Made by a program: the position numbers and the translations under genes. This document shows, piece after piece, positions 2,658 through 42,997 of a stretch of 49,982 bases of DNA. Under the pieces are notes generated by a model that made no database searches, had not been told where the DNA came from, and saw only the letters and a list, made by a program, of their open reading frames with translations. Every line of letters begins with the position of its first letter. Within the stretch, counting starts at the first letter, position 1. Source of the stretch: a virus (lineage: Duplodnaviria > Heunggongvirae > Uroviricota > Caudoviricetes). The stretch lies in IMG/VR virus record IMGVR_UViG_2588253749_000002, one strand, 5' to 3'.

Positions 2658-4665
<2,008 letters not shown>

Positions 4666-9252: not shown

Positions 9253-9331
9253 ATTTAAAACTATAGTTGTTTTATCGTCAACAACAAAAGTTGTTTTATT
9301 GGTTGTTTTAGATATAACTGGTTGTATTTAG
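9253..9331 (-). promoter_or_regulatory. PL promoter with OL operator repeats
   Basis: Minus-strand TTGACG-17bp-TTAAAT embedded in palindrome GTTGTTGACGATAAAACAAC, plus AACAACTTTTGTTGTT and further GGTTGT half-sites; coordinates approximate. Confidence 0.5.
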
Positions 9332-10664: not shown

Positions 10665-11204
10665 ATGCAACCACTTCCATACCAACAGACTAGCGGATTT
10701 AGCCCGACTGCGGTGATAAATCGTTCTCAAACAAAACAGGTGCCAGGCCACGAAAAAATCCGTGATGCCGTCCGCGCCTGGTCGGCTGTAGATAATCAGG
10801 ATGTCGTTGCCACACTCATTGTGAATGAGTATCGGGAGCAGGGCGGCGGCACCATCGATTTCCCTGATGATGTCAGCCGTGCACGCCAGAAGCTGTTCCG
10901 CTTCCTCGATAACAAATTCGATTCTGAAAAATACCGAAATAACGTGCGTGAACTGACCCCGGCAATTCTGGCGGTACTACCGCTGGAATATCGCGGTTAC
11001 CTGGTTGAGCAGGATAGCTTCATGGCCAGGTTGGCTGAAATGGAAAAGGAACTCAGTGAGGCAAAACAGGCTGTCATTCTCAACGCACCACGCCACCAGA
11101 AACTGAAGGAAATTAGTGAAGGTATTGTATCGATGTTTCGTGTGGACCCAGATCTGGCTGGTCCATTGATGGCGATGGTTACTACCATGCTGGGGGCGAT
11201 ATGA
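10665..11204 (+). CDS. CII-position regulator, YdaT-like family (tentative)
   Basis: 179-aa ORF in the cII position with RBS AAGGAG; recalled resemblance to prophage YdaT-family proteins. Confidence 0.5.
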   Translation: MQPLPYQQTSGFSPTAVINRSQTKQVPGHEKIRDAVRAWSAVDNQDVVATLIVNEYREQGGGTIDFPDDVSRARQKLFRFLDNKFDSEKYRNNVRELTPAILAVLPLEYRGYLVEQDSFMARLAEMEKELSEAKQAVILNAPRHQKLKEISEGIVSMFRVDPDLAGPLMAMVTTMLGAI

Positions 11205-11290
11205 CAGGTTCAGAAATGGCGAAAGCCGGTCTGCTGGAACAGAACCGACTTTCAGGTGCAAATCGTAACACACTCATTGCGGGAGGAATT

Positions 11291-12220
11291 ATGGCAAACA
11301 CTGCTGAGATATTCAATTTTCCAGTGCCGGATGCGGCACAAAAGGAGCCGCGCGTGGCAGATCTCGATGATGGTTATACGCGCATTGCAAATGAGTTGCT
11401 GGAAGCTGTGATGCTGGCCGGATTAACACAGCACCAGCTTCTGGTCTTCCTGGCTGTCATGCGCAAAACATATGGCTTTAATAAAAAACTGGATTGGGTG
11501 AGCAACGAGCAACTGTCCGGATTGACCGGGATATTACCGCACAAGTGTTCTGCTGCAAAAAGTGTTCTGGTAAAGCGTGGGATTTTGATTCAGAGCGGGC
11601 GGAATATCGGTATTAATAATGTGGTCAGTGAATGGTCAACATTACCCGAATCAGGTAAGAAAAATAAAGTTTACCTGAAAGAGGTAAATTTACCTGAATC
11701 AGGTAAGAAAAGTTTACCCAAATCAGGTAAAGGCGTTTACCCGAATCAGGTAAACACAAAAGACAAACTAACAAAAGACAATATAAAACCTTTTTCGTCC
11801 GAGAATTCTGGCGAATCCTCTGACCAACCAGAAAACGATCTTCCTGTGGTGAAACCAGATGCTGCAATTCAGAGCGGCAGCAAGTGGGGGACAGCAGAAG
11901 ACCTGACCGCCGCAGAGTGGATGTTTGACATGGTGAAGACCATCGCACCATCAGCCAGAAAACCGAATTTTGCAGGGTGGGCTAACGATATCCGCCTGAT
12001 GCGTGAACGTGACGGACGTAACCACCGCGACATGTGCGTGCTTTTCCGCTGGGCATGCCAGGACAACTTCTGGTCCGGTAACGTGCTAAGTCCGGCCAAA
12101 CTCCGCGACAAGTGGACCCAACTCGAAATCAACCGTAACAAGCAACAGGCAGGCATGATAGCCAGCAAACCAAAACTCGACCTGACAAACACTGACTGGA
12201 TTTACGGGGTGGATTTATGA
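11291..12220 (+). CDS. O: Replication initiator O
   Basis: N-terminal region like lambda O (MANTAEIFNF...ADLDDGY...); strong GGGAGGA RBS before ATG 11291; iterons inside the gene; stop overlaps P start. Confidence 0.85.
   Translation: MANTAEIFNFPVPDAAQKEPRVADLDDGYTRIANELLEAVMLAGLTQHQLLVFLAVMRKTYGFNKKLDWVSNEQLSGLTGILPHKCSAAKSVLVKRGILIQSGRNIGINNVVSEWSTLPESGKKNKVYLKEVNLPESGKKSLPKSGKGVYPNQVNTKDKLTKDNIKPFSSENSGESSDQPENDLPVVKPDAAIQSGSKWGTAEDLTAAEWMFDMVKTIAPSARKPNFAGWANDIRLMRERDGRNHRDMCVLFRWACQDNFWSGNVLSPAKLRDKWTQLEINRNKQQAGMIASKPKLDLTNTDWIYGVDL
11642..11753. repeat. Origin iterons (ori) inside O
   Basis: Four to five direct repeats TTACC(C/T)(G/A)AATCAGGTAA(G/A) at about 24-bp spacing (11642, 11670 degenerate, 11690, 11714, 11737) followed by an A-rich stretch. 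Confidence 0.7.
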
Positions 12221-12919
12221 AAAACATCGCCGCACAGATGGTTAACTTTGACCGTGAGCAGATGCGTCGGATCGCCAACAACATGCCGGAAACAGTACGA
12301 CGAAAAGCCGCAGGTACAGCAGGTAGCGCAGATCATCAACGGTGTGTTCAGCCAGTTACTGGCAACTTTCCCGGCGAGCCTGGCTAACCGTGACCAGAAT
12401 GAACTGAACGAAATCCGCCGCCAGTGGGTGCTGGCTTTTCGGGAAAACGGGATCACCACAATGGAACAGGTTAACGCTGGAATGCGCGTAGCCCGTCGGC
12501 AGAATCGACCATTCCTGCCATCACCCGGGCAGTTTGTCGCCTGGTGCCGGGAAGAAGCATCCGTTACCGCCGGGCTGCCAAACGCCAGCGAGCTGGTTGA
12601 TATGGTTTACGAGTATTGCCGGACGCGCGGGCTGTATCCGGATGCAGAGTCTTATCCGTGGAAATCAAACGCGCACTACTGGCTGGTTACCAACCTGTAT
12701 CAGAACATGCGGGCCAATGCGTTGACTGACGCGGAATTACGGCGCAAGGCTGCCGATGAACTGTCCTGTATGACCGCACGAATTAACCGTGGTGAGGCTA
12801 TACCTGAACCAGTAAAACAACTTCCTGTCATGGGCGGTAGACCTCTAAATCGTGCACAGGCTCTGGCGAAGATCGCAGAAATCAAAGCTAAGTTTGGGCT
12901 GAAAGGAGCAAGGGTATGA
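12217..12919 (+). pseudogene. P: Replication protein P, frameshifted
   Basis: ATG 12217 gives MKNIAAQMVNFDREQMRRIANNMPE, then the frame runs to a stop at 12385-12387; the rest of P continues in the +1 frame to 12919; consistent with one extra A in the run at 12290-12292. Confidence 0.8.
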
Positions 12920-13230
12920 CGGGCAAAGAGGCAATTATTCATTACCTGGGGACTCATAAGAAATTCTGTGCGCAGGACGTTGCCGCGGTAACAGGCGCAA
13001 CGGTAACCAGCATAAATCAGGCTGCGGCTAAAATGGCACGGGCAGGTCTTCTGGCTATCGAAGGTAAGGTCTGGCGAACGGTGTATTACCGGTTTGCTAC
13101 CAGAGAAAAACGGGAAGGAAAGGTGAGCACGAATCTGATTTTTAAGGAGTGTCGCCAGAGTGCCGCGATGAAACGGGTATTGAGGGTATTGGATTTGCCC
13201 CTATATTTCCAGACATCTGTTATCACTTAA
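12916..13230 (+). CDS. ren: Ren-like protein, 3' end altered by IS2 insertion
   Basis: First 90 or so aa match lambda Ren; reading frame enters the IS2 end at 13190. Confidence 0.8.
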
Positions 13231-14106
13231 CCCATTACAAGCCCGCTGCCGCAGATATTCCCGTGGCGAGCGATAACCCAGCGCACTATGCGGATGCCAT
13301 TCGTTATAATGCTCGAACGCCTCTGCAAGGTTCTTTGCTGCCGTTAACCCGTCTGGTTTGGGCATGATACTGATGTAGTCACGCTTTATCGTTTTCACGA
13401 AGCTCTCTGCTATTCCGTTACTCTCCGGACTCCGCACCGCCGTGTTCTTCGGTTCAAGTCCCAACATCCGGGCGAACTGGCGTGTTTCATTAGCCCGGTA
13501 GCATGAACCATTATCCGTCAGCCACTCCACTGGAGACGACGGAAGATCGTTGCCGAAGCGGCGTTCCACCGCTCCCAGCATGACGTCCTGTACTGTTTCA
13601 CTGTTGAAGCCGCCGGTAGTCACCGCCCAGTGCAGTGCCTCACGATCACAGCAGTCCAGCGCGAACGTGACACGCAGTCTCTCTCCGTTATCACAGCAGA
13701 ACTCGAACCCGTCAGAGCACCATCGCTGATTGCTTTCTTTCACGGCCACTCTGCCTGTATGTGCCCGTTTCGATGGCGGTACAGCAGGTTTTCGCTCAAG
13801 CAACAGCGCATTCTGGCGCATGATCCGGTAAACACGTTTGGCATTGATCGCAGGCATACCATCAAGTTCTGCCTGTCTGCGAAGCAGCGCCCATACCCGA
13901 CGATAACCATACGTGGGCAGCTCTCCGATAACATGGTGTATACGGAGAAGCACATCCGTATCATCAGTGTGACGACTGCGGCGGCCATCCATCCAGTCAT
14001 CGGTTCGTCTGAGAATGACGTGCAACTGCGCACGCGACACCCGGAGACAACGGCTGACTAAGCTTACTCCCCATCCCCGGGCAATAAGGGCGCGTGCGCT
14101 ATCCAC
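13201..14106 (-). CDS. insD: IS2 transposase OrfB (InsD)
   Basis: 301-aa DDE transposase ORF overlapping insC. Confidence 0.9.
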
Positions 14107-14429
14107 TTTTTTGCCCGTCCATATTCAACGGCTTCTTTGAGGAGTTCATTTTCCATCGTTTTCTTGCCGAGCAGGCGCTGGAGTTCTTTAATCTGCTTCA
14201 TGGCGGCAGCAAGTTCAGAGGCAGGAACAACCTGTTCTCCGGCGGCGACAGCAGTAAGACTTCCTTCCTGGTATTGCTTACGCCAGAGAAATAACTGGCT
14301 GGCTGCTACACCATGTTGCCGGGCAACGAGGGAGACCGTCATCCCCGGTTCAAAGCTCTGCTGAACAATTGCGATCTTTTCCTGTGTGGTACGCCGTCTG
14401 CGTTTCTCCGGCCCTAAGACATCAATCAT
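14064..14429 (-). CDS. insC: IS2 transposase OrfA (InsC)
   Basis: 121 aa from [14 protein letters not shown]... Confidence 0.9.
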
Positions 14430-14621
14430 CTGTTCTCCAATGACTAGTCTAAAAACTAGTATTAAGACTATCACTTATTTAAGTGATACTGGTTGTCTGG
14501 AGATTCAGGGGGCCAGTCTAGGTATATAAAAGAACATCAATGGGTACACAATGATGAAACAGGTGAGTTGAGTTCAAACTGTAGTACAATTCTCTCCAGT
14601 TTGAACAGGAAAGAATATTCT

Positions 14622-14954: not shown

Positions 14955-15210
14955 AAATAATTTGTTTCTAAACGACTAAAATATGGAGGCTCTTATATTT
15001 ATATGAGCCTCGTTTTATGCTTTTTGTTAATGTCTTTATTTTTTTATGTATTCTTTTGTGCTTTCAAGATTATGGCGTAAGAAAATTGCAATACGATTAT
15101 TGTTGTATATTCAAGATAATGTGACCTTAATTGTCTTTTTAAATAAAAATTAAACAAAAATTATATCCCACCACTAAGGTTTATAAAAGCATACGTTAGC
15201 AGGTGTCACC

Positions 15211-18737: not shown

Positions 18738-19020
18738 TTTGAGAAAAGCAGCGCGTGGTCGGGAATGCCAGGTAAGAATCCCTGGCGTATGTAATGGCAA
18801 TCCTGAAACGTCAGTACTGGCACATATCCGGCTGGCTGGATTGTGCGGTACCGGTATCAAACCGCCAGACCTGATTGCCACCATTGCATGTTCTGCCTGC
18901 CACGACGAAATCGACCGTCGCACGCATTTTGTTGACGCTGGATATGCAAAAGAATGCGCGCTGGAAGGTATGGCGAGAACACAGGTTATCTGGTTGAAAG
19001 AGGGGGTTATTGAGGCGTGA
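18730..19020 (+). CDS. ybcO: YbcO-like putative nuclease (DUF1364)
   Basis: 96 aa from [19 protein letters not shown]... Confidence 0.8.
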
Positions 19021-19379
19021 ATACCTACAGCATCACATTACCCTGGCCGCCGAGCAATAACCGCTACTACCGGCATAATCGCGGGCGCACGCACATCAGC
19101 GCAGAAGGGCAGGCATACCGTGATAACGTCGCCCGAATCATTAAAGGCTCAATGCTGGATATCGGCCTGGCTATTCCTGTGAAAATCCGCATAGAGTGCC
19201 ACATGCCGGATCGCCGTCGCCGTGACCTGGATAATCTGCAAAAAGCCGCTTTTGACGCACTCACCAAAGCAGGTTTCTGGCTGGATGATGCTCAGGTCGT
19301 TGATTACCGCGTTGTGAAGATGCCTGTTACCAAAGGTGGGAGGCTGGAACTGACCATCACCGAAATGGGGAATGAATGA
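19017..19379 (+). CDS. rusA: Holliday-junction resolvase RusA
   Basis: 120-aa ORF matching RusA ([18 protein letters not shown]...); GTG start. Confidence 0.9.
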
Positions 19380-19516
19380 TGTTTGAGTTTTATATGGCAG
19401 AACTTCTTCGCCACCGCTGGGGGCATCTGCGCTTATATCGTTTCCCCGGTTCTGTTTTGACCGATTACCGAATACTGAAGAATTACGCCAAAACCCTGAC
19501 AGGAGCAGGAGTATGA
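19376..19516 (+). CDS. ylcG: YlcG-like small protein
   Basis: 46-aa ORF below the track cutoff ([46 protein letters not shown]); coordinates +/-1. Confidence 0.5.
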
Positions 19517-19602
19517 AGTCAGAGATAACAATCAACTAATACTGTTTTGTTGATTTTTGCTTGTAATTGGCGTTTCTGGTCTGATTTTTGTGGAGTAAGT
19601 TG

Positions 19603-19986
19603 ATGCGTGATATTCAGATGGTTCTTGAGCGTTGGGGAGCGTGGGCGGCTAATAATCATGAAGATGTGACCTGGTCGTCCATTGCCGCCGGTTTTAAGGG
19701 ATTAATTCCTTCAAAAGTAAAATCTCGCCCGCAATGTTGTGACGATGACGCGATGATCATTTGCGGGTGCATGGCCCGTCTGAAAAAGAACAACAGCGAT
19801 TTGCACGATTTATTAGTAGATTATTATGTAGTCGGTATGACATTCATGTCACTGGCAGGTAAGCATTGCTGCTCTGATGGTTATATCGGGAAAAGGTTAC
19901 AAAAGGCTGAGGGCATAATTGAAGGGATGTTAATGGCATTAGATATCCGGTTAGAGATGGATATCGTTGTTAATAACTCTAATTAA
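19603..19986 (+). CDS. quuD: Late-gene antiterminator Q (QuuD-like)
   Basis: 127 aa from [22 protein letters not shown]... with a Cys cluster. Confidence 0.85.
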
Positions 19987-20019
19987 TACGCCAATTATTT
20001 ACTAAAAGTTATTAAAAAT

Positions 20020-20037
20020 GGGGCGTTGAAACGCCCC
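20020..20037 (-). terminator. Hairpin with T-run downstream of nmpC
   Basis: GGGGCG-TTGAAA-CGCCCC followed on the minus strand by ATTTTT. Confidence 0.4.
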
Positions 20038-20174
20038 CAAAAATAAAGGGTAATATATAACAGAAGGTTTGTATAGTTAGAAGCAAGGTTGTGCTTCTAA
20101 AGGAAGTGGCTTGAGGGAGCCACTTATATGTTGGGGAGGCAAAGCCTCCCACAACATATCTTTTAGTAATCAAA

Positions 20175-21257
20175 TTAGAACTGGTAAACCATACCTACAG
20201 CAACGATATCATCGGTAGCAACGCCAGATGCTTTCGTGAAATCGCTCTTATCAATCAGGTTGATTTTGTAGTCAACAAAAGTGGACATATTTTTGTTGAA
20301 GTAATAGGTTGCACCTACATCAACATATTCAACCAGGTCCTGATCACCCCAAACACCCAAGTCTTTTCCTTTAGAATGCAGGTAAGCAACGGATGGACGC
20401 AGGCCGAAGTCGAACTGATATTGTGCAACAGCTTCGAAGTTTTGTGCTTTGTTGGCAATATGGTTATTACCAAAAACAGTCATGTTCTGGGTTTCAGAAT
20501 AGGTGGTGGCCAGATAGATGTTGTTCGCATCATATTTCAGACCAGCTGCCCATACTTCAGCATTTTGACCAGAAGCATTCAGACCGTTGTTACCGTAGAT
20601 AACCTGATTATTAGTGCGATCAGATTTAGCATAGGTTGCACCTACACCGAATCCTTCATACTCATAAGTAGTGGAGAAACCGAAACCATCACCATTAGCT
20701 TCAGTTACGTCAGTGCGGTCATTTTTACCCTGATACTGAGCAGCAAAGTTCAGACCATCAACCAGACCAAAGAAGTCGTTGTTACGATAAGTTGCAACAC
20801 CAGTGGTGCGACCAGTCATGAACACATCTGTTTGAGTCCAAGTGTCACCACCGAATTCTGGCAGGACGTCAGTCCACGCACCGATGTCGTATGCTACACC
20901 GTAGTTACGGCCGTAATCGATGGAGCCGTAGTCACCGAATTTCAGGCCAGCGAAGGCAAGACGGGTTTTATCTTTGGAGGAACCTTGAGATTCAGCGCGG
21001 TTGCCTTTGAATTCATATTCCCACTGACCGAAACCAGTCAGTTGATCGTTGATTTGGGTTTCACCTTTGAAGCCAAGACGGGCATAAGTAGTATCACCAT
21101 CATCTGCATCATTAGAGGAGAAGTAGTGCTTAGCATTAACTTTCCCGTACAGATCCAGCTTGTTACTGTCTTTATTATAAATTTCAGCTGCCTGAGCAGA
21201 CATCGCCATCAGTACTGATGCAGCTACAGCAGAAATTGCCACTGTTAATTTTTTCAT
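20175..21257 (-). CDS. nmpC: Outer-membrane porin, NmpC/OmpD type
   Basis: 360 aa from [23 protein letters not shown] (signal peptide), C-terminal ...VGMVYQF; opposite strand to flanking phage late genes. Confidence 0.85.
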
Positions 21258-21454
21258 CGTGAGCCCTTTTTTTGAACTATTATTAAAAAATGATGTCACT
21301 GCGCGATAAATATTCATCTAATCAATATGATTATTTCAAGATGTAAGTTTTAGTTTCTCATTTAATTTGTGAAGTAGATCTCTATTTTTATCTGAACTTT
21401 TTCTATCGAAACCTATTTATGGCTCTTATTTGAACAAAAATAAACCTATTAGCT

Positions 21455-21495
21455 AATTTATATTAATGGCTGTTATTTATGGGGGGGGCTATAAT
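21455..21495 (+). promoter_or_regulatory. Candidate promoter: G8 tract abutting a consensus TATAAT
   Basis: GGGGGGGG at 21481-21488 followed by CTATAAT; weak -35; coordinates approximate. Confidence 0.3.
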
Positions 21496-21845
21496 TCGAT
21501 GGTTTAATTTAAATTAACTAAAAATAACGCCGGAAATTATTTGTTGGTTATTTGTTGAGGTTTTCTTATGTATTTGTGGTGGTGTTTTGAACACTCGGTA
21601 GCATTCTCATAAATATCATTCAGTGGTTTACGTACGTAAAAAATTGGTTATGCTGTTAAGAGTGGTTACTTCGTCACACAGCTTAAACCCGCCGTCGAGC
21701 TGGTTTTTCCATTTTTTGAGTCTCGATATTAGCTGATAACTCAATACCTGAGTTATTCACTGACTCCGAGTCTGTTACGTTTCTGCTTTTTTGCGATACG
21801 TTGTATTCCCTCAATTTACACCCGCTTTGTCTGCGAGGTGGGGTT

Positions 21846-22061
21846 ATGAAATCCATGGATAAGTTAACAACGGGTGTCGCCTATGGCACCTCAGCAGGTA
21901 GTGCCGGTTACTGGTTTTTACAGCTGCTCGATAAAGTCACGCCCTCACAGTGGGCAGCAATAGGTGTGCTGGGTAGCCTGGTATTTGGCCTGCTGACGTA
22001 CCTGACAAACCTTTATTTCAAGATTAAAGAAGATAAGCGCAAGGCTGCGAGAGGTGAATAA
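21846..22061 (+). CDS. essD: Holin, S21 pinholin type, dual-start motif
   Basis: 71 aa from [24 protein letters not shown]...; Met1 and Met4 give a possible holin/antiholin pair. Confidence 0.85.
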
Positions 22062-22558
22062 TGCCTCCATCATTACGAAAAGCCGTTGCTGCTGCTATTG
22101 GTGGCGGAGCAATTGCTATAGCATCAGTGTTAATCACTGGCCCAAGTGGTAACGATGGTCTGGAAGGTGTCAGCTACATACCATACAAAGATATTGTTGG
22201 TGTATGGACCGTATGTCACGGGCATACAGGAAAAGACATCATGCTCGGTAAAACGTATACCAAAGCAGAATGCAAAGCACTCTTGAATAAAGACCTTGCC
22301 ACTGTCGCCAGACAAATTAACCCATACATCGAAGTCGATATACCGGAAACAACGCGCGGCGCTCTTTACTCATTCGTTTACAACGTAGGTGCTGGCAATT
22401 TCAGAACATCGACGCTTCTTCGCAAAATAAACCAGGGCGATATCAAAGGCGCATGTGATCAGTTACGTCGCTGGACATATGCTGGCGGTAAGCAATGGAA
22501 AGGTCTCATGACTCGTCGTGAGATTGAGCGTGAAATCTGTTTGTGGGGTCAGCAATGA
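22061..22558 (+). CDS. rrrD: SAR endolysin (T4-lysozyme-like)
   Basis: 165 aa; N-terminal Gly/Ala-rich signal-anchor segment ([20 protein letters not shown]) then lysozyme core. Confidence 0.9.
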
Positions 22559-23016
22559 ACAGAGTAACCGCGATTATCTCCGCTCTGGTTATCTGCATCA
22601 TCGTCTGCCTGTCATGGGCTGTTAATCATTACCGTGATAACGCCATTACCTATAAAGCCCAGCGCGACAAAAATGCCAAAGAACTGAAGCTGGCGAACGC
22701 GGCAATTACTGACATGCAGATGCGTCAGCGTGATGTTGCTGCGCTCGATGCAAAATACACGAAGGAGTTAGCTGATGCGAAAGCTGAAAATGATGCTCTG
22801 CGTGATGATGTTGCCGCTGGTCGTCGTCGGTTGCACATCAAAGCAGTCTGTCAGTCAGTGCGTGAAGCCACCACCGCCTCCGGCGTGGATAATGCAGCCT
22901 CCCCCCGACTGGCAGACACCGCTGAACAGGATTATTTCACCCTCAGAGAGAGGCTGATCACTATGCAAAAACAACTGGAAGGAACCCAGAAGTATATTAA
23001 TGAGCAGTGCAGATAG
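22555..23016 (+). CDS. rzpD: Spanin inner-membrane subunit Rz
   Basis: 153 aa from [21 protein letters not shown]...; coiled coil. Confidence 0.85.
22775..22957 (+). CDS. rzoD: Spanin outer-membrane lipoprotein Rz1, embedded in Rz
   Basis: 60-aa ORF in the +1 frame of Rz; lipobox LVVVGC; Pro-rich. Confidence 0.8.
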
Positions 23017-23047
23017 AGCTGCCCATATCGATGGGCAACTCATGCAA

Positions 23048-23341
23048 TTATTGTGAGCAATACACACGCGCTTCCAGCGGAGTATAAATGCCTAAAGTAA
23101 TAAAACCGAGCAATCCATTTACGAATGTTTGCTGGGTTTCTGTTTTAACAACATTTTCTGCGCCGCCACAAATTTTGGCTGCATCAACAGTTTTCTCCTG
23201 TCCAATTCCCGAAACGAAGAAGTGATGGGTGATGGTTTCCTTTGGTGTTACTGCTGTCGGTTTGTTTCCAACAGTAAACGTCTGTTGAGCACATCCTGTA
23301 ATAAGCATTGCCAGAGCGGCAGAAAACAACATTTTTTTCAT
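23048..23341 (-). CDS. borD: Bor lipoprotein (serum-resistance family)
   Basis: 97 aa from MKKMLFSAALAMLITGCAQ... (lipobox). Confidence 0.9.
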   Translation of the reverse strand: MKKMLFSAALAMLITGCAQQTFTVGNKPTAVTPKETITHHFFVSGIGQEKTVDAAKICGGAENVVKTETQQTFVNGLLGFITLGIYTPLEARVYCSQ

Positions 23342-23701
23342 CTTATTATCCTGCATTGTTAAAAACGGCAGAATCCTATGTGACAACAATTAAACGATAG
23401 TTAAATGGATTGATGAAAATTAAAACTATATAGGTGGATGCTCAGCCTATTGGAGGAGGGGGGGCACTCAGAATCCTGTGGAATGAAATAAACCGCTCTA
23501 TCTGTCCATTACCCTTTTAGCTGCGCTGTATCGTCGCCGTATTCCCGCATTAACCATGACCGTAGCCCGACGGGGAATTCCTTCTGCGTGAGTGTGCGGG
23601 AATAATCAAAAACGATGCACACCGGGTTTTACTGTGCTGACAGACGCAGGGTTACCCTCATAGTCGCTTTTCCGGTGCGATGGTGGAAGAAACCGGGATG
23701 T

Positions 23702-23896
23702 TCATCCATCATCACTTTGGATTGATGTATATGCTCTCTTTTCTGACGTTAGTCTCCGACGGCAGGCTTCAATGACCCAGGCTGAGAAATTCCCAGACCC
23801 TTTTTGCTCAAGAGCGATGTTAATTTGTTCAATCATTTGGTTAGGAAAGCGGATGTTGCGGGTTGTTGTTCTGCGGGTTCTGTTCTTCGTTGACAT
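23702..23896 (-). CDS. Small ribbon-helix-helix-like protein (YlcI/DUF3950-like, tentative)
   Basis: 64-aa ORF; N-terminal basic stretch then RHH-like segment. Confidence 0.5.
   Translation of the reverse strand: MSTKNRTRRTTTRNIRFPNQMIEQINIALEQKGSGNFSAWVIEACRRRLTSEKRAYTSIQSDDG

Positions 23897-39595: not shown

Positions 39596-42997
<3,402 letters not shown>

Follow-up and report, generated by a model that had tools for sequence, protein, structure and literature searches.

In IMG/VR virus record IMGVR_UViG_2588253749_000002, a lambda/DLP12-like prophage located between torS and torT carries a replication gene P that is broken by one surplus base in a short run of A. The question raised by this locus is whether the prophage has lost its helicase loader by mutation, as assumed in the original prediction of a replication-defective prophage, or whether the surplus base belongs to the deposited sequence and not to the phage. 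The whole stretch of DNA analysed (49,982 nucleotides) is referred to here as the window, and positions are those of the window unless otherwise stated.

Gene P and its surroundings as deposited

The features of the replication region are the following:

11201–12220, plus strand: replication initiator O, 339 aa, intact (Pfam PF04492 Phage_rep_O, E = 2.4e-33)
11642–11758, plus strand: iterons inside O, five copies of TTACCYGAATCAGGTAA, detected by a repeat search and followed by an A-rich stretch
12217–12919, plus strand: gene P (helicase loader) as deposited, 703 nt, one base surplus
12289–12293, plus strand: lesion site GAAAC, with AAA at 12290–12292; GAAC in relatives and in an independent assembly
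12217–12387, plus strand: apparent truncated ORF of 56 aa, with 25 native P residues and then 31 out of frame, a product of the extra base
12248–12919, plus strand: mechanical ORF in the +1 frame, containing P residues 26–233

When the sequence was re-read, the positions originally given for the P start, the overlap with O, the break of the frame and the stop were all found to be correct. The ATG of P (12217–12219) overlaps the TGA stop codon of O (12218–12220) within TTATGA, and frame 0 encodes MKNIAAQMVNFDREQMRRIANNMPE followed by 31 out-of-frame residues up to a TAA at 12385–12387 (56 aa in total). The nearest relative was found in E. coli TW10573, whose torS-torT interval harbours the same prophage at 99.96% identity, and the free phage Turner was 99.8% identical over O-P-ren. 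Base-by-base alignment with these two sequences and with one Stx1a phage revealed a single surplus base in P, where the window reads CCGGAAACAG and the relatives read CCGGAACAG, so that one extra A at 12290–12292 is indeed present in the deposited sequence.

The ORF at 12248–12919 matched PF06992 (Phage_lambda_P) over positions 1–162 of 162 (E = 7e-62, 208 bits, with a cut-off of 26); NCBIfam returned no match for P with any form of the sequence. Deletion of one A from P produced a gene of 702 nt coding for 233 aa plus the stop, and residues 1–233 of this repaired protein were collinear with residues 1–233 of the 233-aa lambda P chains in the PDB (8v9t, E = 2e-150), with 6 differences from wild-type lambda P (~97% identity). 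The near-identity of the rest of P to lambda P that had been noticed at first sight was therefore borne out. Given this degree of identity, P would be expected to act as a helicase loader that binds DnaB and loads it at the origin.

Gene O has the same size as the replication protein found here in TW10573 (339 aa), without any DNA difference inside the gene. The five iterons are followed by two ACAAAAGACAA repeats (region 11642–11785), and by analogy with lambda ori the iteron region is presumed to be the replication origin. P is thus placed directly after an O-type initiator with origin iterons, as is the case for members of the lambda P family. The replication genes follow the order O-P-ren, and the modules kept by the prophage comprise int, xis, exo/bet/gam, an S24 repressor with YdaS/YdaT-like regulators, O, P, Q, lysis, terminase, head and tail. 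Accessory genes detected in the window (1–49982) include those for an emrE-like SMR pump, the ybcK recombinase and an OmpC/NmpC-like porin, as well as iss/bor and lom, and at its right end there is a DUF4236/DUF2971/DUF6602 block that was found phage-free in some genomes (L007, L010).

The AAA allele is present in a single record

The distribution of the allele was analysed in several collections. An exact-sequence lookup in a collection of 153 billion genes found the 56-aa product encoded on one contig only, GenBank CP005998.1 (GCA_000725265.1). The window is an unaltered segment of this record: positions 129039–141209 of CP005998.1 are contained in it with zero differences, a window position x corresponding to CP005998.1 position x + 122,822, which places the AAA of P at 135112–135114 and the insertion at window 19573 at 142395. 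According to two papers, CP005998.1 is the genome that serves as reference for the enterotoxigenic E. coli strain B7A, and the GAAC/GTTC phosphorothioate sites of this strain were counted and mapped on it (PMC6459556).

A 61-nt query centred on the site was assayed against complete E. coli genomes from a RefSeq collection lacking NZ_CP005998.1, and the AAA allele was found at none of 3,888 P loci, which were distributed over 2,994 of the 5,426 genomes. The best match was of 98.4% (60 of 61 bases, with a one-base gap), none reaching 99%. A 36-mer with AAA was found neither among 2.9 million IMG/VR contigs nor among the GTDB species representatives, while its AA version was present in at least 120 IMG/VR viral contigs. 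Phage records aligned over the whole 851-base query at 90% identity or more numbered 152; among the 30 phage matches listed, the span was of 850 bases, except for 12 Stx1a phages with 851; the single Stx1a phage that was inspected had no extra A at the P site. The AAA allele is thus unique to the CP005998.1 record, and comparison with related prophages, the check suggested at the outset, showed GAAC in all the relatives examined.

P is intact in a second, independent assembly of the prophage

A 45-mer spanning the junction between IS2 and ren and two further window-specific strings were found in one viral contig only, IMGVR_UViG_638341085_000015, which comes from an early IMG isolate genome and contains the same prophage as the window. 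This contig was compared with the window over positions 9304–38636 (29,333 bases) in three pieces (L078, L147 and L166). Only two differences were detected, both of them insertions in the window, an A at 12290 and a T at 19573, and there were zero substitutions; piece L147, for instance, equals window 18848–23765 save for the T at 19573. In common with the window, the independent contig has the whole IS2 in ren together with the 5-bp duplication of its target, the run lengths T7 and G8 described below and, within the compared stretch, all the substitutions by which the window differs from TW10573. To judge from this sequence identity, it would represent B7A itself or a clone of B7A.

At the P site, the independent contig reads GAAC and P is intact, its product being likewise of 233 aa and aligned end to end with lambda P in the PDB. 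The lesion was therefore not reproduced in an independent sequence of the same lineage, as would be required of a genuine pseudogene, and it shows what is expected of an artefact, being found in one record only and missing where the same DNA was assembled independently. Raw reads with two A residues had been named as the observation that would overturn the frameshift; in effect this has come about through an independent assembly with AA, which is evidence at the level of assemblies. The opposite possibility, an error in the older assembly, was rejected, as all the relatives have GAAC and neither ORF would be whole without it.

Two IS elements had been taken as a further hint of a defective phage. 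Their positions are as follows:

12916–13189, plus strand: 5' part of ren, about 91 of 100 codons, interrupted by IS2 (comparison with ren of TW10573)
13190–14520, minus strand: IS2, 1,331 bp, in ren (BLAST breakpoints and junction sequences)
2658–4611: IS100 (istA/istB), with target duplication GATGC, at the very start of an accessory gene

IS2 is flanked by the 5-bp target duplication GGTAT (13185–13189 and 14521–14525), and its insertion in ren is real, because the identical junction is present in the independent contig; it costs ren only about its last 9 codons. The gene hit by IS100 encodes a dATP/dGTP-pyrophosphohydrolase(-like) protein with DUF551 (by comparison with L140 8415–9113). 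In lambda, lytic growth requires neither ren nor the early-left accessory region. Both IS elements are real but affect accessory functions, namely the end of ren and a pyrophosphohydrolase-like gene, so that the hint of a defective phage was not confirmed. In TW10573, ren has no IS2, IS2 and IS1203 being found elsewhere in the prophage, and IS100 occupies a different place in the same prophage.

Some lookups did not return the strain. The exact-sequence lookup with the 104-aa ren::IS2 fusion ORF (12916–13230) gave no record, though the gene list of CP005998.1 has a 104-aa product there, and this missing entry is a quirk of the index, not a property of the sequence. The IstB of IS100 is a common protein (8,026 blocks), with no B7A among those returned, and the lookup with the integrase returned 10 other genomes, B7A not being among them.

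The same kind of insertion recurs at GAAC/GTTC

Besides the IS positions, comparison of the window with TW10573 over about 48 kb revealed 11 substitutions, one 6-nt repeat unit in J and four 1-nt indels. Of the latter, those at 15038 (T7/T8) and 21480 (G8/G9) fall within long runs. The remaining pair are bases gained by the window within runs of two, which turn GAAC into GAAAC in P and GTTC into GTTTC at 19573. The T7 and G8 runs, one base below the T8 and G9 of TW10573, are real strain differences and not errors, because the independent contig has the same run lengths. The annotation of TW10573 gives ylcJ a frameshift at the T run (window 15038). The repeat unit in J is an extra in-frame GACACT at 42874–42879, which makes J of 1132 aa compared to 1130 aa in TW10573; the 29-mer of the window at this site, with the extra GACACT, was not found in the independent contig, though the contig was expected to extend there.

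The second insertion in a two-base run is located as follows:

19572–19576, plus strand: GTTTC, second insertion of the same kind (GTTC in TW10573 and in the independent contig)

This site falls in the intergenic region that separates ylcG from the antiterminator gene quuD and precedes the start of quuD by about 30 nt. When the 10 kb of CP005998.1 to the right of the window were compared with TW10573, a single 1-nt indel was detected, again GTTC to GTTTC, this time in torC. The insertion is at about position 178592 of CP005998.1 (L015 4213) and splits torC into 318 + 75 aa, compared to a torC of 390 aa in TW10573 and in eight others among the genomes returned. The 10-mer around it, GGCGTTCTGG, is also that of the insertion at window 19573. 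Altogether, the three insertions in short runs found in 59,982 bases of CP005998.1 are all GAAC to GAAAC or GTTC to GTTTC, and the change in P recurs in the same sequence context elsewhere in the record, as would be expected of a consensus artefact.

A different kind of lesion was observed in torA, outside the window (L015 700–3246 and L016 1–2471), which is broken into 299 + 537 aa in B7A and TW10573 alike and is annotated with an 'internal stop' in TW10573. Unlike the torC split, the torA break looks like a real lesion common to the lineage.

The 59,982 bases contain 44,357 homopolymer runs, among which 500 are GAAC/GTTC motif sites. The chance of all three insertions falling at the motif was p = 1.4e-6 when any homopolymer run was taken as the null, 1.9e-4 for any two-base run and 2.2e-3 for AA/TT runs only, these values being based on 3 events and about 500 motif sites in 60 kb of a 4.9-Mb genome. 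Given the SMRT context, CP005998.1 is presumed to be a PacBio-only consensus, and the artefact is probably linked to phosphorothioation.

Strain B7A carries phosphorothioate at GpsAAC/GpsTTC, as mapped by SMRT sequencing (PMC6459556); this modification alters the interpulse duration and the kinetics of the polymerase in SMRT sequencing, and PacBio reads have more inserted bases in slow regions (PMC4384361). A putative chain of events would start with the phosphorothioate linkage at GpsAAC/GpsTTC slowing the SMRT polymerase; the slow steps could then give rise to extra same-base pulses, and a two-base run beside the modified linkage might end up being called as three bases in the consensus. Some observations weigh against phosphorothioate as the cause. 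Modification per site is partial, 8–41% at the four sites measured, which makes it hard to see how most reads, or the consensus model, would come to prefer an extra base, and the insertions affect no more than 3 of about 500 motif sites. No description of phosphorothioation-linked consensus insertions as a class of error was found in the literature searched.

Alternative explanations for the extra base

The best explanation is that the extra A is a consensus error of CP005998.1 and not a phage mutation, because it is missing from the independent assembly of this prophage; judged on sequence comparisons, and with phosphorothioation as the presumed cause, this explanation is given a probability of roughly 0.9. 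P in the organism would then almost certainly read ...CCG GAA CAG TAC... and encode an intact 233-aa lambda-type helicase loader, and as a consequence the short product of 56 aa, the P lacking its N-terminus and the 'replication-defective prophage' would be artefacts of annotation. Two points speak against a consensus error, namely that the B7A stock behind CP005998.1 could differ from the stock of the older assembly and that the case is built on assemblies, not on reads. Divergence between stocks of one strain can occur, and a real +1 frameshift in P, either in B7A or in the sequenced stock, would produce a null helicase loader and no replication after induction. Such a frameshift would fit with the base standing in a finished public record, with the common occurrence of frameshifts in prophage genes and with the two real IS insertions of this prophage. 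However, P is intact in an independent assembly that has the same private IS2 and SNPs, the AAA allele was detected in no other genome searched, and 29,333 bases with zero substitutions contain two insertions, both at one 4-base motif, a third like insertion breaking the chromosomal gene torC. If 3 of about 500 sites were extrapolated to the 40,701 sites of the genome, roughly 250 insertions would be predicted, with essential genes being hit; as roughly 250 frameshifting insertions without substitutions would hardly be credible as real mutations in a viable stock, a true frameshift appears highly unlikely. It is still more improbable that the insertions are real because phosphorothioated GAAC/GTTC sites are +1 insertion hot spots in B7A, for example by error-prone repair of breaks at the modified linkage. 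If this were true, the CP005998.1 stock would truly have lost P, torC and many other genes, the prophage would be replication-dead, and a modification of the DNA backbone would act as a motif-directed mutagen.

A variant of the artefact explanation is an ordinary random error of run length in the assembly, the match to the motif being a coincidence and phosphorothioation irrelevant. This variant is unlikely, since the three events are all insertions in two-base runs and all of them fall in GAAC/GTTC, with a probability of 2.2e-3 even under the most lenient null, and the long runs that differ from TW10573 (T7 and G8) match the independent contig and hence are not errors. In its favour, the sample consists of three events, and the errors that early consensus callers left behind in long-read assemblies are typically ones of run length. 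A further possibility is the synthesis of P through a programmed +1 ribosomal frameshift or through transcriptional slippage at the A run. The two frames do overlap at 12248–12384, and a shift anywhere there would give the long product, but no homologue examined has the split arrangement and none of the 3,888 E. coli P loci has the AAA allele. Within the overlap no X XXY YYZ slippery heptamer and no shift-prone stop context were found, the longest run being AAAA, and no Shine-Dalgarno-like element was detected upstream; a three-base run is, moreover, far too short for transcriptional slippage. With neither a conserved split frame nor a slippery or stimulatory element, the probability of recoding is practically negligible. 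Restart of translation at an internal codon (GTG 12344 and others) was also rejected, as no Shine-Dalgarno sequence precedes any of them.

Implications for the prophage and for the B7A reference genome

Nothing found supports a replication-defective prophage. The claim that a frameshifted P made it so did not withstand comparison with an independent assembly that has GAAC and an intact P, whereas sequencing error, offered originally as the alternative, is strongly supported by an allele that is present in one record and missing from that assembly. An intact P removes the sole evidence for a defect in replication, and the torS-torT prophage of ETEC B7A would have a complete lambda-type gene set and may well be inducible.

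The reference genome CP005998.1 itself appears to contain false insertions that are specific to the motif of its phosphorothioation sites. If about 0.6% of the motif sites were written as GAAAC or GTTTC, roughly 250 sites would be missing from the phosphorothioate maps (PMC6459556), and about as many genes would be falsely split, like P and torC. A link between phosphorothioation and run length in SMRT consensus sequences, if true, would call for caution with dnd-positive genomes assembled from native DNA.

Comparison with known systems

The repaired protein resembles lambda P (PF06992; PDB 6bbm, 8v9s and 8v9t) in its 233 aa end to end, in the O-P-ren gene order and in the ATGA overlap between O and P. 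In contrast to lambda, O has here its own iteron specificity, with TTACCYGAATCAGGTAA repeats, and the immunity region has an S24 repressor, with YdaS/YdaT-like proteins where cro and cII sit.

The surplus base is similar to the homopolymer-length errors of long reads in that it is a single-base change of a run, confined to one record, of a kind that breaks conserved ORFs (P and torC). Such errors usually occur in long runs and are often deletions, whereas the three described here are all insertions in two-base runs within one 4-base motif. Nanopore assemblies are also known to contain systematic consensus errors at Dam/Dcm methylation motifs, and the present case is like them in recurring at the motif that is recognised by the strain's own system of DNA modification; it differs in that the platform is presumed to be SMRT and the modification is a backbone phosphorothioate and not a methylated base.

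Finally, the prophage is similar to the defective lambdoid prophages DLP12, Rac and Qin of K-12, with which it shares the emrE, ybcK, rusA, quuD, essD/rrrD/rzpD and nohD modules and the presence of real IS insertions. In contrast to DLP12, Rac and Qin, which have lost large blocks including replication and structural genes, the prophage of the window retains int, xis, recombination, immunity, O, P, Q, lysis, terminase, head and tail genes.
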